Origin: an uncultured bacterium
Lineage (GTDB): Bacteria > Patescibacteriota > Patescibacteriia > CAIQCM01
Length of the DNA: 64,000 nt
Assembly: GCA_963708045.1 (NCBI GenBank)
Contig: OY970181.1
Coordinates: 887,566-951,565, forward strand
Direction: 5' to 3'
Shown: positions 830-61,664 of the stretch, one piece after another
How the letters are laid out: each line of letters begins with the position of its first letter
Position numbering within the stretch: position 1 is the first letter of the stretch
Translations under genes and position numbers: made by a program
The notes under the pieces: model-generated
The model's database searches: none
Told to the model about the DNA's origin: nothing
What the model saw: the letters and a program-made list of their open reading frames with translations, nothing else

Positions 830-2300
830 AGTTCGTGTCCGTTTCGCGCCGTCGCCCACGGGAATGATGCATTTGGGCGGTTTGCGTACAGCGCTTTATA
901 ACTATTTTTTTGCCAAACATAATGGCGGCGAATTTTTGTTGCGTATTGAAGACACTGACCAAACACGTTTTGTCCCAGGTGCAATTAATAATATTATTGA
1001 AACGTTAAAATGGGCAGGAATGGATTACGACGAAGGTCCGGTTGTTTCGGGCGATGTCGTCTCCGAACGCGGAGGTCACGGGCCGTATATCCAATCGCGC
1101 CGTCTGGATCTTTATAAAAAGTATGCCAACGAATTGGTTGAAAAAGGTTTGGCCTATCCTTGTTTTTGCACTTCCGAGCGCCTAGACAAATTACGCGAAG
1201 AACAAACTTTGCTAAAACGACCGCCCGGCTACGATGGACATTGTCGCGAACTTACTTCTACCGAAATTGACGCCCGACGTGCCCAAAAAATCCCCGAGGT
1301 TATTCGTATGAAAATGCCGCACGAGGGTGTGACTAAATTTAACGACCTAATCCGCGGTGAAATTGAATTTAAAAATGAACTTTTGGACGACCAGGTGCTT
1401 ATCAAATCCGACGGTTTTCCGACTTACCATTTGGCAGTCGTGGTTGATGATCACCTTATGGAGATCACGCACGTCATTCGCGGCGAAGAATGGCTACCCT
1501 CCACACCAAAGCATATTAAGCTTTATGAATTCTTCGGCTGGAAGCCGACTGAATATGCGCACTTGCCGCTTATGCTTAAGCCTGGCGGCGGTAAGCTTTC
1601 AAAACGCGATATGGCTTCGTCGGTTTCCGACTATATTAGCCAAGGCTACCTAAAACCAGCTTTACTTAACTTTATCGCTCTTTTGGGCTGGCACCCGCCT
1701 GGGGACATTGAAAAATTGTCGGTTATGGAGATGATTGAGGTTTTTGAAATGAAAAACGTCGGCAAGTCGGGTGCAGTCTTTATGCCGGACAAGCTTGATT
1801 GGTTAAACGGCGCGTATCTTCGTGAATTACCGCTTGCGGAATTTGCCGAGCTTTGTCGTCCATATTTAGAAAAAGCCGGTTTTATAGATGAAGGCTTTAG
1901 CGAACAAAAAATCGGCATGATTGTAAAGTTGGAACAAGAGCGCGTAAAAAAACTTTCCGAAATCATTCCCGCGGTTGAATATTTTTTCAAACCGCCGCCT
2001 TGCGACAAGAATAAACTTGTCTGGAAAAAACAAACGACCGAGCTTGCCGCGGCGCGCTTAGAAAAAGTTCGCGAAGTCGTCGTGGCGTTAGACGAATCGC
2101 TCTGGAATGCCGCCGAACTTGAAAAAATAATTAAAGAAATGATTACCGCAACAGCGACGCCGGTCGGGGAAACGCTTTGGCCAATGCGCGTGGCGCTAAG
2201 CGGACGCGAAGCTTCGCCTGGACCGTTTGATATTGCCGCCGTTCTTCAAAAAAATGAAACCTTGCGCCGTTTAGATACGGCCATCGCCGCCCTAAAATGA
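807..2300 (+). CDS. gltX: glutamyl-tRNA synthetase
   Basis: N-terminal VRVRFAPSPTGMMHLGG (class I HIGH motif). KLSKR (KMSKS-like) later. Length 497 aa. Confidence 0.85.
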   Translation: MINLGKNKVRVRFAPSPTGMMHLGGLRTALYNYFFAKHNGGEFLLRIEDTDQTRFVPGAINNIIETLKWAGMDYDEGPVVSGDVVSERGGHGPYIQSRRLDLYKKYANELVEKGLAYPCFCTSERLDKLREEQTLLKRPPGYDGHCRELTSTEIDARRAQKIPEVIRMKMPHEGVTKFNDLIRGEIEFKNELLDDQVLIKSDGFPTYHLAVVVDDHLMEITHVIRGEEWLPSTPKHIKLYEFFGWKPTEYAHLPLMLKPGGGKLSKRDMASSVSDYISQGYLKPALLNFIALLGWHPPGDIEKLSVMEMIEVFEMKNVGKSGAVFMPDKLDWLNGAYLRELPLAEFAELCRPYLEKAGFIDEGFSEQKIGMIVKLEQERVKKLSEIIPAVEYFFKPPPCDKNKLVWKKQTTELAAARLEKVREVVVALDESLWNAAELEKIIKEMITATATPVGETLWPMRVALSGREASPGPFDIAAVLQKNETLRRLDTAIAALK

Positions 2301-3508
2301 AAAATTTCTCACAGCAAATATTTGTCATTCTCTCGGTTGTCGCTATTCTAGTCTCGCCTGGAGTTGCTTTTGGCACACCCAAAGAAGATCTTTTAAAAAT
2401 CAACGATCAAATTACTAACAAAAAAAATCAAATAGATACACTTAAACAAAGTATTCAAACGTATCAAAATAAAATTAATAGTTTGGAGAATCAGGAGTTG
2501 TCGCTTGCGAACGAGATTAGTATTTTAGACAACCGTCTTGCCAAAATGGACTTAGATATTCAGTCAACCGAAGCACAAATTGAAGAAATCGGGCTTGAAT
2601 TACAATCACTTGATAATCAAATCTCTACCACCTCTGGCCGATTGTCAAACGACCGGTCGCTTCTTGCTGATTTAATCCGAAAAGTTGACCGCGAAGATGA
2701 ACGCACTGGTTTGGAAACTTTATTTTTAAACGATAATTTTTCCGCCCTTTTTAATCGCGCCAAATATCTAGAAGATCTTCAGGGTGATATGTTAAAAACA
2801 ATAAATGCCGTTCAGGATTCAAAAACACAACTTGAAACAACTCAAGCTGAACGCATTTCCAAAGACGCTGAACTTAAAAAAACTAAGGACGAACTGGCAA
2901 TTGAAAAAATAAAGCTTCAAGACTCGCGTGACAGCAAAGCGTATTTGGTGGATAAGACGCGAAATTCAGAATATCAATTCCGAAATTTTGTCGCTGGGTT
3001 GCAAAACGAAGCAGCGCTTGTTTCAAACGATCTTTCCGCGCTTCAATCGCAAGCGCAAAAAAAATTGCGCGATGTTGACCAGTTTCCGAACGGTAACGTT
3101 GTTCTTTCTTGGCCAGTACCTTCACATATTATCTCAACAGGTTTTCATGATCCGGAATATCCTTTCCGCCGCATTATGGAGCACTCGGGAGCGGATATTA
3201 GCAAAACGCCGCAAGGAACGCCGGTTACCGCCGCCGCCCCTGGTTATGTTCTTAAAGCAAAAGATGCTGGCTATGGCTATAGCTACATCATCATTATGCA
3301 TGGCGATGGCATTGCCACGGTTTATGGCCACCTTTCTCACATTAACGTTGTTACTGATTCGTATGTTAATCGCGGCGACGTTATTGGCCTTTCGGGCGGA
3401 ATGCCAGGAACGCTTGGCGCCGGCCCAATGACCACGGGTCCGCACCTTCATTTTGAAGTTCGTGTTAACGGTATTCCTACCGACCCGACAAATTATTTGG
3501 TCAGTTAG
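2297..3508 (+). CDS. secreted M23-family peptidase with N-terminal coiled coil (EnvC-like murein hydrolase activator/peptidase)
   Basis: Signal peptide, long coiled-coil region, C-terminal HSGADI...GHLSHI...GPHLHFEV LytM/M23 motifs. Confidence 0.75.
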   Translation: MKNFSQQIFVILSVVAILVSPGVAFGTPKEDLLKINDQITNKKNQIDTLKQSIQTYQNKINSLENQELSLANEISILDNRLAKMDLDIQSTEAQIEEIGLELQSLDNQISTTSGRLSNDRSLLADLIRKVDREDERTGLETLFLNDNFSALFNRAKYLEDLQGDMLKTINAVQDSKTQLETTQAERISKDAELKKTKDELAIEKIKLQDSRDSKAYLVDKTRNSEYQFRNFVAGLQNEAALVSNDLSALQSQAQKKLRDVDQFPNGNVVLSWPVPSHIISTGFHDPEYPFRRIMEHSGADISKTPQGTPVTAAAPGYVLKAKDAGYGYSYIIIMHGDGIATVYGHLSHINVVTDSYVNRGDVIGLSGGMPGTLGAGPMTTGPHLHFEVRVNGIPTDPTNYLVS

Positions 3509-3625
3509 AGATTTGAAATTAGATTAAAGAAGCACTAAAAAACCTCCATAAAACGGTGGTTTTTTAAGTTATCCACCATGACGGCATTGTGTTCGGTTTT
3601 TGTTCGGGTTAAAATAGACATAGAT

Positions 3626-4071
3626 GTTAGAGATTTGAAATTAGATTTTAGAAGCCGTGACTTATGACAGAAAAAATTACAACTTTCACTGATTTAATTA
3701 CCTGGACAGAAGCACATAAACTCGTAATAGCGATATATAAAATTACAAAGCTGTTTCCTAGAGAAGAAATGTTTGGATTAACTAATCAAATGCGCCGCGC
3801 GGCGGTCTCAATAACATCAAATATTGCGGAGGGGTTTGGAAGATATAGTTTCAAAGAAAAAATTAGATTCTATTATATCTCCAAAGGGTCAATTACCGAA
3901 TTAAAGAACCAGCTTCTTATCGCACGCGATGTAGAAATCATGACGAAGAAACAGTTTGAAGAAATAGATATACAAATGAACAACACCTACAAACTACTAC
4001 ATGGTCTCATATCAAAAACAAAAGAGTTATCCTTTCCGACTTCTAAAATCTAATCTCTAATTTCTAATCTC
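3626..4071. mobile_element. IVS-like hairpin element carrying the four-helix-bundle gene between inverted repeats built of (A/G)ATTAGA heptamers
   Basis: Left arm GTTAGAGATTTGAAATTAGATTTTAGAAG (3626-3654). Right arm CTTCTAAAATCTAATCTCTAATTTCTAATCTC (4040-4071) is its imperfect reverse complement. A solo left-arm copy sits at 3504-3532. Confidence 0.35.
3664..4053 (+). CDS. four-helix-bundle protein (23S rRNA intervening-sequence protein family)
   Basis: 129 aa with ...ITSNIAEGFGRYSFKEKIRF...SITEL signature. Gene sits exactly in the loop of a ~30-bp inverted repeat (3626-3654 / 4040-4071). Confidence 0.7.
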   Translation: MTEKITTFTDLITWTEAHKLVIAIYKITKLFPREEMFGLTNQMRRAAVSITSNIAEGFGRYSFKEKIRFYYISKGSITELKNQLLIARDVEIMTKKQFEEIDIQMNNTYKLLHGLISKTKELSFPTSKI

Positions 4072-4077
4072 AAACCT

Positions 4078-4671
4078 ATGACTTTTATATCACTCACAAA
4101 AAAACAGCGCGCCGTGTACGAGATCGTAAATTATTACATCCGCTCTTACGAACGCCCGCCAACGGTTCGCGAAATCGGCAAAGAGTTAAATCTTGCCGCC
4201 GCGACAGTGCAAGAGCACGTAAATGCTTTGCGCGAAAAAGGCTACATAGAAAAACACGAAATCGCTCCGCGCAACCTTTTTTCCGCCGCTATCCAGCTTC
4301 CGCTTGCCGGCCTTATCACCGCCGGTGTGCCAATTGAGGCGGTTGAAGAAAAAGAAGTAATGGCCGTTCCCGCGAGTTTAGTAATGGACGGCGCCAACTC
4401 TTACATTCTTAAAGTAAAAGGCCAATCAATGATTGAAGACGGAATTTTGGACGGAGATTATGTTATTGTGGAACGTAATCCTTCGCCAAAGAACGGCGAC
4501 GTTGTTGTTGCGCTCCTGGACAATGCCTTTGCCACCTTAAAACGTTTTTACCGCGAACCAAATCGCATTCGTTTGCAACCAGCCAATTCCTCAATGGATC
4601 CAATTTATGTCCGCGATCTCTCTATTCAAGGTGTTGTTCGCGCCGTAATCCGCCAATTTGCCCGCGCCTAA
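4078..4671 (+). CDS. lexA: LexA repressor (S24 peptidase, SOS regulator)
   Basis: N-terminal wHTH (VREIGKELNLAAATVQEHVNALREKGYI), linker, C-terminal S24 domain with GQSMIEDGILDGDYVIVE and K in ...ALLDNAFATLKRF. Confidence 0.8.
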   Translation: MTFISLTKKQRAVYEIVNYYIRSYERPPTVREIGKELNLAAATVQEHVNALREKGYIEKHEIAPRNLFSAAIQLPLAGLITAGVPIEAVEEKEVMAVPASLVMDGANSYILKVKGQSMIEDGILDGDYVIVERNPSPKNGDVVVALLDNAFATLKRFYREPNRIRLQPANSSMDPIYVRDLSIQGVVRAVIRQFARA

Positions 4672-4676
4672 AAAAT

Positions 4677-4757
4677 GAGATTAGAAATTAGAGATTGGAT
4701 GTTAGAAGCCGAGAGTACAGTACGACTTCTTCATTCAAATTTCTAATCTCTAATCTC
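4677..4757. repeat. cargo-less hairpin element of the ATTAGA-heptamer family (MITE-like)
   Basis: Arms 4677-4708 and 4726-4757 are imperfect reverse complements (GAGATTAGAAATTAGAGATT... / ...AAATTTCTAATCTCTAATCTC). Confidence 0.55.
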
Positions 4758-4770
4758 GCAATTAGAAAAT

Positions 4771-5019
4771 ATGACTCACCAAAAATACAATGACCCGATT
4801 GATGTTTTGGCATCATTTTCCGGAACTAAGGCCGTGCCCCACGTTATTAAATGGGGACGCCATCGTTACAATTTAGAAAAAGTTAACCTAGTTCATATTG
4901 CAAACGAAGGTTTAAATAAAATATTTTATTTTTCCGTGTCCGATAAAATTAATTTCTTTAAACTTCGCTTTGATGCTTCTAATCTTGAGTGGCGTTTACT
5001 GGAACTTTATAGTGAATAG
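4771..5019 (+). CDS. hypothetical small protein between lexA and dinB, flanked on both sides by hairpin elements
   Basis: 82-aa ORF. No recognisable motif. Position suggests SOS-regulon membership. Confidence 0.3.
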   Translation: MTHQKYNDPIDVLASFSGTKAVPHVIKWGRHRYNLEKVNLVHIANEGLNKIFYFSVSDKINFFKLRFDASNLEWRLLELYSE

Positions 5020-5029
5020 ATGTAATTGT

Positions 5030-5105
5030 GAAATTAGAGATTAGAAATTAGAATGAAGAAGTTTAATATTCGTCTTCTAAAATCTAATCTCTAATTTCCA
5101 ATCTC
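5030..5105. repeat. cargo-less hairpin element of the ATTAGA-heptamer family (MITE-like)
   Basis: Arms 5030-5061 and 5074-5105 are imperfect reverse complements. 12-nt loop. Confidence 0.55.
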
Positions 5106-5112
5106 ATAGAGT

Positions 5113-6333
5113 ATGAAAATCGTAATGCACGCCGATATGAATAGTTATTTTGCATCGGTGGAACAGCAGGCTAACCCGTTTCTTCGTGGCAAACCAGTGG
5201 CTATCTGTTCGCGTATTTCACGAAATGCCTGCATTATCGCTTGTTCTGTTGAAGCAAAAAAACTTGGCATTAAAACGGGTTTTAGTTTAAACGAAGCCAA
5301 AGTTATTGCGCCAAATATTATCGCTTTGGAAGTTGATCCGCCAAAAGTTCGCACGGTGACCAAAAAAATTTTCACGATTTTTGCCGACTTTACATCGGCA
5401 ATAGAACCTTATTCAATTGACGAAGCGTTTATGGATGTTACTGGTTATGTTAATAGTTTTGAAGCAGCGCACGAGATGGCTTTGGTCATAAAAAAACGAA
5501 TCAGGAACGAAGTAGGGGAATGGCTGGGTTGTTCCATTGGAATTTCCTATACGCGCTGGCTTGCTAAATTTGCTGGTGAATTGCAAAAACCCGACGGCCT
5601 TACGATCCTAAAAAAAGAAGACCTAGCGCGTATTTATAAAAACCGCCCCGTTGACGAAGCATGGGGGATTGCTAAAGGCTGGAAAACCAGATTAAATGCA
5701 CTCGGTATTAACACCCTTGGCGAACTTCTTGTCTATAACCCATTGGAACTTAAACGACGTTTTGGAATGCCCGGATATATTATTTGGGCAAATGTGAGCG
5801 GGTTGGATATTAAGGAGGTCAAAACTGCAACCAATGAACAACAAAAAAGCATTGGCCATTCTTATGTTTTTCACAAACGCACGGCCGACGAACAAATGAT
5901 CTCGGCGATTGCCATGAAACTTTGTGAGCGCGTTGGCTGCCGCCTGCGCAAGCTCGGTATGGAGACTAGGGGGATTAGAGTTGACTGGAGTTGCGGAGAA
6001 AACGGAGATAGTCGCCGAGTGCGCTGTTTTGACTCTGTTTTTGAGTCATACGACATTTATAATGCGGCTTTTAAGACCTTCCGCAACGCTTGGAATCGTT
6101 CCGTTGTTACTTTTATGGGTATAACCGCTTTTGACCTTGTACCGACAAACGGACAAATTTCAATTTTTAACAACAAACAAAAAAAGCGCGGACTTAGCAC
6201 CGCGCTTGATCTTGTAAATGATCGCTATGGAGCTTATACCGTCTTCCGCGGTCAAATGTGGGGGACAGAAGAAAGCGCACCCGACCGCGTCGGTTTTAGA
6301 CAAACCGTTCCTGTTCCCGCATTTATTAATTAG
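5113..6333 (+). CDS. dinB: Y-family DNA polymerase (DNA polymerase IV / DinB-like)
   Basis: HADMNSYFASVE (catalytic Asp motif), SIDEAFMDVTG, little-finger region. Directly downstream of lexA. Confidence 0.8.
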   Translation: MKIVMHADMNSYFASVEQQANPFLRGKPVAICSRISRNACIIACSVEAKKLGIKTGFSLNEAKVIAPNIIALEVDPPKVRTVTKKIFTIFADFTSAIEPYSIDEAFMDVTGYVNSFEAAHEMALVIKKRIRNEVGEWLGCSIGISYTRWLAKFAGELQKPDGLTILKKEDLARIYKNRPVDEAWGIAKGWKTRLNALGINTLGELLVYNPLELKRRFGMPGYIIWANVSGLDIKEVKTATNEQQKSIGHSYVFHKRTADEQMISAIAMKLCERVGCRLRKLGMETRGIRVDWSCGENGDSRRVRCFDSVFESYDIYNAAFKTFRNAWNRSVVTFMGITAFDLVPTNGQISIFNNKQKKRGLSTALDLVNDRYGAYTVFRGQMWGTEESAPDRVGFRQTVPVPAFIN

Positions 6334-8008
6334 CTATAGGCGAGGGAAGTGGCCGTAAATCAAGTTCGGTTAGAATTTTTTTATCAAGCGTAAAAACCAT
6401 TACTGTCTCCGGTTCAGTAAGATTCAGAAGGCGTACACCACTCCTTGCTCCATCGGTCCAGTTAAGTTCTCGAGCGGTATTTGCAGCGGAATTTGCGGTT
6501 TTATGCCAAAGAGCTTGTTCGTCGCCGGATGTGGTGTCCATACGAACCAAACTAACACTTGACCCGTTCACGTCCCAGACTGCAATTCCGGTGTCCGGAA
6601 GCGAGTTGTCGTAAAATCCTCGCTCGCGATTTTCAATAAGAAAATATTCTGTACCAGCGGCTGGACCATTTGGTTGGTCGCGATCAACACGAATCACGGT
6701 ATGGGAATCTTCAATTGAACCAAGTTTTAAATTTGTAACTTCTTGCGCTTTAGGAATTACGGTTGGTGTAAGCCAACCAAGCTGAATACGAGCATAAGGA
6801 TCTATTTGCAAGTCAGTATGCGGTGCGCTCATTAATGAAAATTTACCAAGCGACGAGTCGGGGATATTAAAAATTTGTTTAGCAAAACAGTGGGCAATTG
6901 CACCAAACTCTGTCGCCTCACCGAGCGGATTACCAATATAAAGCTCGCCAACCGTATTCAAAGTTACCCCATCAACAACCATAGGTTTTTGTTCTGGCGT
7001 TTCCGCCGAATAAACACTAGAAACAGCATCGGCAGGCTCGCCAGATTGCGGGATAACGATAAAAATTGCCAACTCGTCAAACGTTAATTTACCATCGCCA
7101 TTAGTATCGTATTTTTTAAAATCAAAATCAGCGTTAGCCTTTTTAATAGCTTCGGCGCGACGCTCGTTGGCGCCAGTGCTAAAACCATCTTTCCCGTGGA
7201 TAAGCGGATCGTCTGACCAATAATGCTCGGGTTGATATTCAGCTCCATACCAACCAAGCACTCCAGCATTAATAACAGAAACGTGATTATCAGATTCGGT
7301 TTTAAAGTAGTCAGCAACGCTTGGTGCTGTACCAAAAACAACCCGTTCAATGGAGGTTTTGTCAGGTGCAGCCGCATCGGGTCGCTTGGGATCCCATAAA
7401 ATTAACAGGACATTCTTTTTTGTCGGATTAACCACGGTTGGTGTGACCGTAACCGGCGTCGTTGCGGTTGGATTCGGTGCTTTCGTGGAATCGCGATCAG
7501 TAATTATCGTCGGTGACGCATCGCGTTCGTTTGTCCACCAGTATTCACCGGTAACGGAAATGTCAGTGCCGAATTTATAAGACGTAAAAAAAGCGTCTGG
7601 CACGGAAATAACTTTTTTTGACCAGTTATCGCCAAAAATAGTTTTGGCGATATTCGGAGTTGTGAGCCAACGCAAAACGCCACCGTGGGCAACGGCATAA
7701 ACCTTGGCGCTTGAAGCAATTTTTACAATATTGTCTCCGGGACGAATTGTCACTAGTCCCGATAAAGACAAGGCGGCTAATTCCGTATCAGTGATCGTTT
7801 TAACGGTTTTAAAATCGGCGTACCAAGTAAAATATGTCGCTTCGTTGGGAAAAGCCAAACGCTTGCCGCCTGCGAGAACAAGATAAACTGCCGATCTTGA
7901 ACCTTTAACCAAGTCGCCTTCGGCAGGGGAATAGGCGGCGCTTGCCGGCCTCGACAGTGCGCTAATTATAAATATTACGATTAGAATTTTTATTTTATTC
8001 ATATTCAA
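6326..8008 (-). CDS. secreted multidomain protein: paralogous N-terminal domain + Pro/Thr linker + M6-like metalloprotease domain with degenerate HExxH (HCFAK), predicted catalytically inactive
   Basis: Signal peptide. N-domain paralogous to that of 7995..10052. C-domain aligns with 10135..11394 (VVDGVT..., EF-hand-like DTNGDGKLTFDEL, FSLMSAPH), but HELSH is replaced by HCFAK. Confidence 0.5.
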   Translation of the reverse strand: MNMNKIKILIVIFIISALSRPASAAYSPAEGDLVKGSRSAVYLVLAGGKRLAFPNEATYFTWYADFKTVKTITDTELAALSLSGLVTIRPGDNIVKIASSAKVYAVAHGGVLRWLTTPNIAKTIFGDNWSKKVISVPDAFFTSYKFGTDISVTGEYWWTNERDASPTIITDRDSTKAPNPTATTPVTVTPTVVNPTKKNVLLILWDPKRPDAAAPDKTSIERVVFGTAPSVADYFKTESDNHVSVINAGVLGWYGAEYQPEHYWSDDPLIHGKDGFSTGANERRAEAIKKANADFDFKKYDTNGDGKLTFDELAIFIVIPQSGEPADAVSSVYSAETPEQKPMVVDGVTLNTVGELYIGNPLGEATEFGAIAHCFAKQIFNIPDSSLGKFSLMSAPHTDLQIDPYARIQLGWLTPTVIPKAQEVTNLKLGSIEDSHTVIRVDRDQPNGPAAGTEYFLIENRERGFYDNSLPDTGIAVWDVNGSSVSLVRMDTTSGDEQALWHKTANSAANTARELNWTDGARSGVRLLNLTEPETVMVFTLDKKILTELDLRPLPSPIAN

Positions 8009-22434: not shown

Positions 22435-22507
22435 TAACTTTTAACTGTTAACTTTTAACTATTAGTATTCGTTTACCTAAAAGTTAAAAGTTAAAACCTG
22501 AAAGTTA
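22435..22507. repeat. imperfect palindrome built of AAGTTAA/TTAACTT heptamers
   Basis: Arms 22435-22466 and 22477-22507 are reverse-complementary with a 10-nt loop. A solo arm of the same family sits at 35567-35595. Confidence 0.5.
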
Positions 22508-29583: not shown

Positions 29584-29642
29584 ATTCACAATATTCCTGT
29601 CCGGATTAGACATTAGATATTAGGAATTAGATATTCATCGTA

Positions 29643-30854: not shown

Positions 30855-31646
30855 TTATTTTAGAAAACCGACCCATTCACTATTCAGATCAAAATAATTA
30901 TATCCATTCTGTGAATCTGATTCTAAGTGGCCAATCCATTCATTATTAATATCAAAAATCATGTAGCCATTTTGTGAATGCTTAATTGCAAACTTTGTTT
31001 GTTCTGCGCTAAAGTCGAAAAACAACAACGAATTTTGTGAATTTTCAAAAATCACAAATTCGTAGGGGGTGCAGTTAAGGTCATAATTATAATAACCAAT
31101 AAAATTTGCGTTAAATCTAGGATTAATTAAATTATTAAATCTTGGATTAATAAGGTTGTTAAATCTAGGATTAATTAAATTATTAAATCTTGGATTAATA
31201 AGGTTGTTAAATCTAGGATTAATTAAATTATTAAATCTTGGATTAATAAGGTTGTTAAATCTAGGATTAATTAAATTATTAAATCTTGGATTAATAAGGT
31301 TGTTAAATCTAGGATTAATTAAATTATTAAATCTTGGATTAATAAGGTTGTTAAATCTAGGGTTTCTATTATTGCTCACTGGCGCTACATCTAAAGTTAA
31401 ATCCAGGAATACGAGAACAGGAATATTGCGACTATCGTTCGTAAAATTTATAAAAATTCTGAGTATGCCAACTTTAAAAAATTGTATTTGTCCAAATACA
31501 AAATTCAATCCTAAATAATTTGCTACACCATTAGCATCTAAAACCTTTATTTTATTAAGAACATCAACAATTATTCCTTTAGGTGTTTTATCAAGTTGAT
31601 TTAACTTATTTTCAAATTTTTCTGTTGCCAATATTTTAATATTCAT
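30855..31646 (-). CDS. repeat protein: RelE/ParE-like N-terminal fold (tentative) + ~13x NPRFNNLI octapeptide repeats + three C-terminal NGYxxFDxNxEWxG (WG-like) repeats
   Basis: Stop codon lies 3 nt from the hsdS start. N-terminal ~90 aa resemble RelE (…KFENKLNQLDKTPKGIIVDVLNKI…KVGILRIFINF…VLVFL). Encoded by perfect 48-bp DNA tandem repeats. Confidence 0.45.
   Translation of the reverse strand: MNIKILATEKFENKLNQLDKTPKGIIVDVLNKIKVLDANGVANYLGLNFVFGQIQFFKVGILRIFINFTNDSRNIPVLVFLDLTLDVAPVSNNRNPRFNNLINPRFNNLINPRFNNLINPRFNNLINPRFNNLINPRFNNLINPRFNNLINPRFNNLINPRFNNLINPRFNNLINPRFNANFIGYYNYDLNCTPYEFVIFENSQNSLLFFDFSAEQTKFAIKHSQNGYMIFDINNEWIGHLESDSQNGYNYFDLNSEWVGFLK
31110..31357. repeat. perfect tandem 48-bp (2 x 24-bp) DNA repeats, ~5 copies, in-frame within a CDS
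   Basis: GTTAAATCTAGGATTAATTAAATTATTAAATCTTGGATTAATAAGGTT repeated head-to-tail at 31110, 31158, 31206, 31254 and 31302. Confidence 0.85.
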
Positions 31647-35527: not shown

Positions 35528-35570
35528 CTCACCCCAACCCCTCTCCCATTCTTGGGCGAGGGTGATAAAA
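35528..35570 (-). terminator. putative intrinsic terminator after ygjP-like gene (GC hairpin + U-rich tract on minus strand)
   Basis: Minus-sense CACCCTCGCCC-aagaat-GGGAGAGGG followed by GTGTTTGTGTGCTTT. Confidence 0.3.
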
Positions 35571-35573
35571 AAG

Positions 35574-36137
35574 TTAAAAGTTAAAAGTTAAAAGCTCTTT
35601 CCTAAGTTTTTTATGCTCCGGAATCGTCTTCGCGACCAAATCCCAAAATCTTTTTGAGTGATTAAATTCTGCCAAATGACAAAGCTCGTGAACAATAATA
35701 TAATCGGCAAGGTGCGGCGCGAGAAGTGACAGCTTATAATTAAAATTTAGATTCCCCTTTTTTGAACAACTTCCCCAACGCGTTTTTTGATTTTTAATAT
35801 TCACCGCTTTAAAACGAAAACCATAAAATAAATTAAAATGCCTAATCCGATCATTAACAAGGGCGCGTGTGATTTCTTTATATTTTAAATATTCGCTCCG
35901 CGTTCCCTTTTTTACAATTTGTATTTTATGCTCTTTAAAAAAGGCAATTTTGCGGGTGAGCCATACAGCTTTTTCGCGGATAAATTTTTCGGCCAGTGTT
36001 TCATTAGCCCACCACGGCGTTGTCACAACAATTCTACCATCGCAATATACCGCAAGCCGCATCCGCTTGGCTCGTCGGCTTTTCTTTATGGTATAAGGAA
36101 GCGTCGTAGATTTATTTTTTAACGTAAAAAAATTAAT
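35574..36137 (-). CDS. YgjP/DUF45-family metal-dependent hydrolase (M48/WLM-like, HExxH)
   Basis: ...LPYTIKKSRRAKRMRLAVYCDGRIVVTTP...WGSCS...YIIVHELCHLAEFNHSKRFW. Start uncertain: the family-conserved N-terminus overlaps the atpC stop. The only in-frame candidate is ATT at 36135-36137. Confidence 0.55.
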   Translation of the reverse strand: MNFFTLKNKSTTLPYTIKKSRRAKRMRLAVYCDGRIVVTTPWWANETLAEKFIREKAVWLTRKIAFFKEHKIQIVKKGTRSEYLKYKEITRALVNDRIRHFNLFYGFRFKAVNIKNQKTRWGSCSKKGNLNFNYKLSLLAPHLADYIIVHELCHLAEFNHSKRFWDLVAKTIPEHKKLRKELLTFNF

Positions 36138-36576: not shown

Positions 36577-36653
36577 TTGTAGGGTTTAGGGGTTAGGGGT
36601 TAGCGTTGAGTGTTTTACTAAACGCTATACGCTTGACCCTAAACGCTTTAATA

Positions 36654-38057
<1,404 letters not shown>

Positions 38058-38093
38058 TTATTATATTTACAATTTGCAATTTACTATTTGCCA

Positions 38094-51983: not shown

Positions 51984-52088
51984 ATCTTTGTTTATGAATC
52001 ATGAAACACGCAACATGAAACATTTTAACCCCCGCAAAACGGGAGCGGATATGCTTCGTGTTTCATGCTTCATGCTTCATGCTTCATG
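51984..52088. repeat. imperfect palindrome built of CATGAAA/CATGAAG heptamers with GC hairpin core
   Basis: TGAATCATGAAACACGCAACATGAAAC ... GTGTTTCATGCTTCATGCTTCATGCTTCATG flanking CCCCCGCaaaacGGGAGCGG. Confidence 0.5.
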
Positions 52089-53042: not shown

Positions 53043-53082
53043 GAATATCTAATATCTAATGTCTAATGTCTAATCCGATGGA

Positions 53083-54882: not shown

Positions 54883-55066
54883 AACAAAAAACATCCTCCG
54901 CTTTAGCGGAGGATTTTTTTTATAATTTTATACAGATGGCGCAAAAAAATTTATTCTTTCCCGAAACGGTTTAATCTCTATAAAAAACAGGGTTTGATTT
55001 TAAAAATACAAACATCAACACAAACTTTTGAGGGGAAGAATTAATTTTTTTGCGCCAAAAGGTAAT

Positions 55067-61490: not shown

Positions 61491-61664
61491 AAAAGAAACT
61501 CTAACAAAAATTCCTACTTTAATCAAGAGTTTAAACTAGGGTTTAGGGTTTAGAGGTTAGGGGTTAGTACTTTTCCTATAGACAATGCCAAAAAAATAAA
61601 TGCGGCCTAAAGTCTCGTGACTCCAAGCCGCATATTAAGTGACGTTAGCTAGTCCGTTGACTAG

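Follow-up and report, generated by a model that had tools for sequence, protein, structure and literature searches.

We analyzed a 64-kb window of contig OY970181.1, from an uncultured member of the Patescibacteriota, in which palindromic elements made of 7-nucleotide (nt) units occupy an operon composed of lexA, an 82-amino-acid open reading frame (ORF; orf82) and dinB. All genes of this region lie on the forward strand. The largest element, cassette A, carries a gene for a 129-amino-acid four-helix-bundle (4HB) protein (3664-4053) between two inverted arms. Its left arm (3627-3657) is heptamer-periodic and purine-rich, and over 31 nt it is 87% complementary to positions 4037-4067 of the right arm, which extends to 4072 (inverted repeat I4/I5). 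The 4HB gene starts 6 nt past the left arm and its stop codon (4051-4053) falls within the right arm, which in turn ends 5 nt before the ATG of lexA (4078-4671; Pfam LexA_DNA_bind and Peptidase_S24). Two elements without any ORF follow: hairpin B in the lexA-orf82 spacer (4677-4757; arms 4677-4711 and 4723-4757, 11-nt loop) and hairpin C in the orf82-dinB spacer (5030-5105; arms 5030-5062 and 5070-5105). The host gene lexA is bracketed by the right arm of A and the left arm of B, and orf82 (4771-5019), which every relative keeps at this place in the operon, whether hairpins are present or not, by the right arm of B and the left arm of C. Gene dinB (5113-6333), which encodes a Y-family polymerase with Pfam IMS and IMS_C domains, starts 7 nt past the right arm of C. 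Upstream of the operon, a solo left arm (3505-3532; heptamers TTAGAGA, TTTGAAA, TTAGATT and AAAGAAG; repeat family D2/D3) contains the TAG stop codon (3506-3508) of an M23 peptidase gene (2297-3508). Downstream of this gene there are a terminator-like hairpin with a run of T (approximately 3540-3570) and a promoter-like block, TTGTGT-N16-TAAAAT (3588-3615), which belongs to the host operon and lies outside the element. The initial annotation of this DNA had already reported the arms and hairpins, the solo arm over the peptidase stop, the two nearly empty elements with the same heptamer arms and the bracketing of lexA and orf82, and we recovered all of them at the positions given here.

A single type of element is present four times in the region: once with an ORF, twice without and once half-decayed. 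Every arm is a run of TTAGARA-like heptamers that closes on an inner GAAG...CTTC stem, and Tandem Repeats Finder returned a period of 7. A 20-mer core of the arms has nine matches in the window with up to three mismatches, compared to 0.01 expected, and the repeats are therefore beyond chance; the sequence TTAGANATTAGA has 28 matches, compared to 1.2 expected. The arms of cassette A close the predicted fold of positions 3615-4080, while hairpins B and C reach -32 kcal/mol (z = -5.94) and -32.2 kcal/mol (z = -7.62), respectively. The right arms of C and A are 82% identical over 51 nt (repeat family D1). The arms are also promiscuous: pairing is possible between every arm of the purine type and every arm of the pyrimidine type. 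The right arm of A pairs with the left arm of B at 92% over 36 nt (inverted repeat I3) with lexA looped out, and the right arm of B pairs with the left arm of C at 93% over 40 nt with orf82 looped out. We detected no rRNA gene within the 64 kb, where an Rfam scan returned nothing, and a promoter and terminator scan of the window gave signals no better than those of shuffled sequences.

The 4HB protein matches Pfam PF05635 (23S_rRNA_IVP; E = 1.6e-36) and TIGR02436 (121.7 bits, cutoff 24), and is homologous to XCC0516, whose structure is available (PDB 2GSC; E = 2.7e-18). These matches bear out its initial assignment to the protein family whose genes lie in 23S rRNA intervening sequences (IVSs). 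It shares the fold superfamily of Avd, the accessory protein of diversity-generating retroelements, as indicated by weaker matches to Pfam bAvd (E = 3.2e-8) and to NCBIfam DivGenRetAVD (NF033474; E = 3.1e-6). We rejected the possibility that it is itself an Avd, since its 27.4 bits are far under the equivalog cutoff of 80 and neither a reverse transcriptase ORF nor a template or variable repeat lies nearby. Searches of PADLOC and NCBIfam returned nothing informative besides TIGR02436, and among Pfam, NCBIfam and PADLOC the protein matched four-helix-bundle families only and no catalytic family. To our knowledge, it has no nuclease, recombinase or transposase features. The protein is basic (isoelectric point 9.55), its homologues are found in Patescibacteria, and the ratio of nonsynonymous to synonymous substitution rates (dN/dS) of approximately 0.07, measured against the related locus L002, indicates purifying selection.

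The initial annotation had held that the elements invaded the lexA-dinB module, and had proposed a comparison of filled and empty sites in related genomes as a check. This comparison revealed the polymorphism. Two relatives, L001 and L002, are filled: their LexA is 94% identical to that of the window, their 4HB proteins are 84% and 70% identical, and both show the gene order of the window, with the 4HB gene following the same promoter block and preceding lexA. Four more distant relatives (L203, L204/L205, L206/L207 and L208/L209; LexA 84-90% identical) keep the promoter, lexA, orf82 and dinB, with neither the 4HB gene nor heptamer hairpins. The synteny WecG-GltX-M23-lexA-orf82-dinB is retained in L204, L206 and L207, and lexA-orf82-dinB only in L203 and L208/L209. 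In the four unfilled relatives the leader of lexA measures 34-45 nt. Between lexA and orf82, L203, L204 and L206 have a hairpin-free spacer of 12-24 nt and L208/L209 one of approximately 128 nt with a GC-rich palindrome, while the orf82-dinB spacer lacks a counterpart of hairpin C in L203, L206 and L208. The promoter block GTGTTCGGTTTTTGTTCGG and a -10-like box are identical in the window, L001, L002 and L203-L209, with or without the cassette. Since the unfilled relatives keep both operon and promoter, cassette A and hairpins B and C are gains in one clade. On this comparison, the elements are best read as insertions that were gained in the ancestor of a small clade of Patescibacteria and have been retained since. 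In L204 (4376-4493) and L205 (1151-1268), the orf82-dinB spacer hosts an unrelated palindrome with a 26-nt perfect stem and a 66-nt interior, so that this spacer attracts unrelated palindromes as well.

Synonymous divergence (dS) is saturated (> 1.4) among the three filled genomes, and the insertion that they have in common is therefore old rather than recent. Each of the three keeps complementary 7-periodic arms, though the arm sequences differ. Given that complementarity has survived at saturated dS, pairing has been maintained, whether through selection or through concerted evolution. At the same time, the elements turn over. Where the window has a single hairpin in the lexA-orf82 spacer, L001 carries an 88-nt hairpin unit three times in tandem (6358-6625) and L002 a hairpin of the CATGAAA type, a family that occurs at 51994-52088 in the window. 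At the position of the solo arm, L002 has a complete 7-periodic hairpin (5367-5448; -37 kcal/mol, z = -7.95) and L001 a half-decayed one. By comparison with these, the solo arm at 3505-3532 is the left half, and hence a remnant, of the hairpin that is complete in L002. Both filled relatives also carry, past the M23 peptidase gene and ahead of the lexA promoter, an additional ORF of approximately 114-128 amino acids with a strong GGAGG ribosome-binding site and no Pfam hit on record (L001 4814-5200; L002 5476-5860). The window does not have this ORF; all that remains there is the solo arm, together with a different terminator.

Matched arms around a 4HB gene are not confined to this clade. A scan of metagenomes with the 4HB protein of the window returned 80 loci with 54-74% identity. 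In 55 of the 77 cassettes with enough flanking sequence, the best inverted repeat across the gene exceeds those of all shuffles by a margin. Nearly all arms are 7-nt periodic, with a heptamer that varies from locus to locus (GAATTAT, GATTTAA, GAATCAT, GGAATTT and others) around the loose consensus GAWTTAW. The left arm finds its best partner in its own right arm in 20 out of 75 cases, and within the top three partners in 35. The cassettes are tightly packed: the upstream gene lies on the same strand, the ATG of the 4HB gene is usually in the last heptamer and its stop codon in the right arm, and the next gene begins 0-14 nt past the right arm. None of the 80 cassettes lies in an rRNA context, nor do two heptamer loci with rRNA-like motifs. 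We also retrieved 29 plasmids with a 4HB gene, nearly all cyanobacterial, with the addition of Riemerella, Azospirillum and Gemmatirosa. Of the 15 plasmid cassettes that we inspected, some of which occupy the cas6-cas4 and cmr2-cmr3 intervals, every one shows tracts of period 7 at the ends of the gene; the inverted arms are significant in 12, while two or three cassettes have direct rather than inverted repeats. In plasmid pPg_01 of Pseudanabaena galeata (L212; 1080-1210 and 1575-1700), the 4HB gene between cas6 and cas4 lies between direct arrays of approximately 14 copies of AAAAGCT upstream and 10 of AAAAGCC downstream, as if it had been dropped into one long tract. Plasmids pGamma and pAlpha of Nostoc PCC 7120 have pyrimidine heptamer tracts in direct orientation.

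To quantify the periodicity, we examined the flanks of 91 distinct cassettes from several phyla together with 273 control windows. Seven is the best short period in 54 of the 91 upstream and 66 of the 91 downstream flanks, compared to 7 of the 273 controls, and a period of 8 occurs in only 3 and 4 flanks, respectively. Wrapping by heptamer arms is a general hallmark of the whole gene family and is apparently undescribed. The idea that a period of 7 was selected because it places stop codons in all three frames was rejected, as real arms are no better in this respect than permuted periodic controls.

Elements without an ORF are also found elsewhere. A hairpin scan that covered 420 kb detected ORF-less 7-periodic hairpins near the cassettes of the window, L001, L002, L128, L159, L177 and L179. 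In 9 of the 15 hairpins of this kind, the cassette arm from the same locus ranks first to third among 82, and it ranks first for the left arms of both B and C. Filled and empty elements therefore share arm families that are specific to the locus. The window has ten further period-7 sites with different heptamers, nine of which lie in spacers between mostly co-directional genes. Two are hairpins, at 22435-22507 (TTAACTT; z = -4.75) and 51994-52088 (CATGAAA; z = -5.88), each of which exactly fills the spacer of co-directional genes on the minus strand. Solo tracts occur in spacers at 13753-13779, 29605-29635, 35569-35594, 36580-36615, 38065-38089, 53044-53074 and 61537-61567; that at 13753 contains the start codon of the next gene, that at 53044 abuts it, and those at 36580 and 61537, with TTTAGGG/TTAGGGG-like units, are similar to the telomere repeats of eukaryotes. 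Beyond the window, TTAGARA tracts or hairpins are present in at least 120 genomes of Bacteroidota, Chloroflexota, Cyanobacteria, Campylobacterota and others.

The heptamer repeats known as STRR lie between genes in Cyanobacteria. The comparable TAACTGA repeats of Beggiatoaceae, Cyanobacteria and Bacteroidetes are direct repeats of one heptamer, with one inverted set only; they have been proposed as elements of translation or mRNA stability, with CspB binding one heptamer per protein, and have not been linked there to 4HB genes or IVSs (MacGregor 2015, PMC4679880). The arms and solo tracts of the window fit the same description of at least three tandem 7-nt units in a short spacer by a start codon. 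They further resemble TAACTGA and STRR repeats in their location at starts devoid of a Shine-Dalgarno sequence, in insertions and deletions in steps of 7 nt and in a patchy distribution over the same phyla. Unlike them, the units of the window differ in sequence, vary by locus, pair as inverted arms and enclose a gene.

The closest known counterparts of cassette A are the rRNA IVSs with an S23p ORF of Leptospira, Coxiella burnetii (helix 45), Xanthomonas and Azospirillum, which encode the same PF05635 family. An unannotated example emerged among our hits. In Azospirillum lipoferum (AZO_p2), a 4HB ORF lies inside a 23S rRNA gene (Rfam large subunit model, 906 bits, model positions 668-1853), by our arithmetic near model position 1200, between inverted 7-periodic arms of the GAGGACG/GATGACA type (left TCAGAGGACGGATGACAGAGGACGGAGGACAGAAAG, right CTATCCGTCCTCTGTCTTCTGTCATCCGTCTTCTGA). 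The IVS in helix 45 of Coxiella carries GACAGAT heptamers in tandem upstream of the S23p ORF, with a copy number that varies between strains, and RNase III has been shown experimentally to make the 5' cut at the first heptamer repeat (Warrier et al. 2016, PMC4990558). Cassette A thus has in common with these IVSs the protein family, an ORF in the loop of a long stem formed by terminal inverted repeats, 7-nt-periodic arms (as in Azospirillum and Coxiella) with a variable number of heptamers, and the lack of a promoter of its own, and its initial description as IVS-like is well founded. It differs in that it lies in the 5' leader, and its relatives in the intercistronic spacers, of a protein-coding operon that is probably under LexA control, rather than in an rRNA gene; in that ORF-less copies accompany it; and in that its ORF is under purifying selection, whereas that of Coxiella is decaying and apparently untranslated.

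We consider it rather probable that the elements are promoter-less hairpin cassettes of the IVS type, with a 4HB gene or nothing between matched heptamer arms, which were inserted into the lexA-orf82-dinB operon, are co-transcribed with it and form duplexes of the kind cut by RNase III. According to this model, the 5' leader and both intercistronic spacers received units, which would be transcribed from the conserved promoter of the operon within one mRNA. We infer co-transcription from the lack of a terminator-like run of T after any of the element stems. The arms would then pair in the mRNA as A/U-rich duplexes of 25-35 bp, which RNase III may cut as it does in 23S rRNA IVSs. By the same analogy, the cut would free the loop, either the mRNA of the 4HB protein or a few bases, and would split the polycistron, so that the insert might remove itself at the RNA level. 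Such removal would explain why inserts are tolerated both in rRNA and in operons.

Several observations weigh against this model. The stems show no excess of G-U wobble pairs, which would have been a mark of selection at the RNA level: on the sense strand there are 77 A.C mismatches and 37 G.T. The antisense strand folds even slightly better than the sense strand (-30.6 and -28.2 kcal/mol, respectively, P-value = 0.006). This lack of a sense-RNA signature leaves room for a DNA-level or strand-neutral role. The long-range pairings around lexA and orf82 equal or exceed those of the local hairpins. The stem is not universal in the gene family, as the direct heptamer tracts beside the gene in Pseudanabaena and Nostoc PCC 7120 indicate. 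We found no gene for RNase III (rnc) or for Csp proteins by motif in the window, and processing of the window stems by RNase III is argued by analogy. Finally, the ORF of the Coxiella IVS is decaying and thought to be untranslated (PMC4990558).

Other explanations account for part of the same evidence. In the initial annotation, the ORF-carrying and the empty elements were related as autonomous and non-autonomous miniature inverted-repeat transposable elements (MITEs). The 4HB protein would then be a trans-acting factor of mobility or maintenance that recognizes the arms and spreads its own cassette together with the ORF-less hairpins. Shared arm families and the filled and empty sites stand in favor of this view: every 4HB gene that we examined lies in heptamer tracts, ORF-less hairpins by a cassette usually share its arm family, and both forms were inserted into formerly hairpin-free spacers, with a number of hairpins that varies from one in the window to three in L001. 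The protein is moreover under purifying selection, basic and related to Avd, which is associated with nucleic acids. The mobile pair itself fares less well. We saw no clear target-site duplication when filled lexA leaders and lexA-orf82 spacers were compared with empty ones, although the high divergence makes this weak evidence, and the protein has neither a known nuclease or recombinase motif nor an informative match in PADLOC or elsewhere. There is also no 4HB gene within 8 kb of the TTAGARA tracts at the 120 or more loci mentioned above (approximately 870 kb, searched by tblastn and with a hidden Markov model of 120 homologues), and only one in the 64-kb window despite its several heptamer families. 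Gene conversion between neighboring arms could equally produce shared arm families. We regard a trans-acting mobility factor as unlikely. We judge it just as unlikely that the tracts are regulatory spacers of the host, for instance binding sites of Csp- or S1-type proteins that set translation or mRNA stability, and that the 4HB gene is a mere passenger. Such a role has been proposed for TAACTGA repeats with their one CspB per heptamer (MacGregor 2015, PMC4679880), and it would fit the intergenic position of nine of the ten other period-7 sites, some of which hold or adjoin the next start codon (13753-13779 and 53044-53074), the absence of a visible Shine-Dalgarno sequence 5' of the 4HB gene, lexA, orf82 and dinB, and arm pairing that has been kept over saturating divergence. 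However, close relatives run the operon with tract-free spacers of 12-24 nt, and the tracts are hence dispensable. Nor do TTAGARA tracts show any orientation bias relative to start codons in the 120 genomes (15 sense and 16 antisense at gene 5' ends), and the free variation of the heptamer between loci is contrary to a single sequence-specific regulator.

A role of the palindromes in DNA, with RNA folding as an incidental property, is in our view improbable. They could be single-stranded hairpins or cruciforms for a recombinase or transposase encoded elsewhere (similar to REP/RAYT, IS200/IS605 or attC), or products of slippage and template switching. The antisense stems that fold at least as well and the two-to-one ratio of A.C to G.T mismatches speak for this view, as do 7-nt-step indels with variable copy number in L001 and in published repeats (PMC4990558; PMC4679880) and the homogenization of arms within the cluster, where the right arm of A matches that of C and is complementary to the left arm of B. 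Conversely, neither the elements of the window nor those of 78 cassettes have a transposase or recombinase gene next to them, the cassettes are nearly always co-oriented and tightly packed in operons, as expected from a constraint on the transcript, and cleavage of a homologous stem by RNase III has been shown in Coxiella (PMC4990558). The palindromes almost certainly do not serve the lexA-dinB module as LexA operators (SOS boxes), despite lying directly 5' of lexA, orf82 and dinB. They are wholly missing from relatives with the same operon, which keep the identical GTGTTCGGTTTTTGTTCGG promoter block, with its GTTC-N7-GTTC repeat, as the better operator candidate; the same type of arm stands beside unrelated genes in approximately 90 cassettes; and arms of 31-36 nt are far beyond the length of an operator. 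We therefore rejected the arms as LexA operators.

The block GTGTTCGGTTTTTGTTCGG lies 5' of lexA and is identical in all eight related loci (window 3580-3616; L001 5270-5300; L002 5925-5965). In the window, its direct repeat GTTC-N7-GTTC occupies positions 3591-3605. The SOS box of Alphaproteobacteria is a similar direct repeat, and the block may be the LexA operator of this clade of Patescibacteria. Elsewhere in the window, the motif by itself shows no enrichment (3 occurrences, 2.15 expected). From its position between the lexA promoter and lexA, the 4HB gene is probably expressed with the SOS regulon. A DnaA-box-like sequence, TTATCCAC(A), lies just 5' of the lexA promoter (window 3570-3578), and similar sites occur in L203 (approximately 575 and 635), L206 (3435-3500) and L208 (3170-3230). 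Loci without the cassette have an inverted DnaA-box-like copy, GTGGATAA, directly before the start codon of lexA, and this downstream copy has been removed in the window by the insertion of the cassette.

Short palindromes in multiple intergenic copies are known from bacteria, as exemplified by the Correia (NEMIS) elements of Neisseria, REP/BIME, REPIN-RAYT, RUP and ERIC, and RNase III cleaves the transcribed Correia elements. The elements of the window likewise are short hairpins in several copies between genes that are probably co-transcribed, and a family of hairpins that flank a gene dedicated to them has a precedent in REPIN/RAYT. REPINs have been described as palindromic elements of bacterial genomes (PMC3116915). 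In contrast to these MITE-like palindromes, the elements described here have no transposase-type partner and no visible target-site duplication, their arms are tandem heptamers of free sequence rather than a conserved terminal repeat, and their gene sits inside the loop of the hairpin.

Part of this picture is already known, namely IVSs with S23p ORFs and inverted repeats, the heptamers of the Coxiella IVS and the TAACTGA and STRR repeats. The same holds for 4HB genes within cas operons (PMC3936711) and for a few 23S_rRNA_IVP ORFs in rRNA inserts of the candidate phyla radiation (PMC11270868). In the searchable literature, we found no description of 4HB genes outside rRNA that lie between matched 7-periodic inverted arms and fill intercistronic spacers, of ORF-less hairpins that share the arm families of such cassettes, or of a tie between IVSs and intergenic heptamer tracts. 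This locus and the approximately 90 cassettes compared with it suggest a general element that may occupy any transcribed spacer, including operon leaders, cas operons and plasmid partition operons, and of which rRNA IVSs are only the subset that resides in rRNA. The origin and function of rRNA IVSs and of their S23p/4HB ORF have been an open question since the early 1990s, which now becomes testable in cultivable carriers such as Nostoc PCC 7120, Riemerella and Azospirillum. The arms physically link the 4HB gene family to the heptamer repeats found between genes in Cyanobacteria, Bacteroidota and sulfur bacteria, explain the recurrent "four helix bundle protein" genes within otherwise conserved operons, and provide a sequence signature to annotate 4HB cassettes and their ORF-less relatives. 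We think it quite unlikely that cassettes, ORF-less hairpins, rRNA IVSs and STRR/TAACTGA tracts all form one pan-bacterial system, in which an Avd-like 4HB protein maintains or spreads the arms in trans. If true, this system would add a new class to the mobile elements, one embedded in transcripts and without a conventional transposase.

Other features of the region are independent of the heptamer arms. The product of orf82 is 91-93% identical across relatives, with a dN/dS of approximately 0.03 and no match in Pfam, NCBIfam or PADLOC, and may be a candidate for an unrecognized partner of the Y-family polymerase. A palindrome that is not made of heptamers (ATCTTAGGCGACGCAT...ATGCGTCGCCTAAGAT) is common to the window (11511-11554), L001 (10011-10148) and L002 (10534-10680), and another one with 36-nt arms lies at 54937-55057 of the window. 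Finally, a 263-amino-acid ORF on the minus strand (30855-31646) hosts a perfect tandem repeat of 48 nt (31110-31361; 5.2 copies, 100% identical), which encodes approximately ten NPRFNNLI octapeptides.

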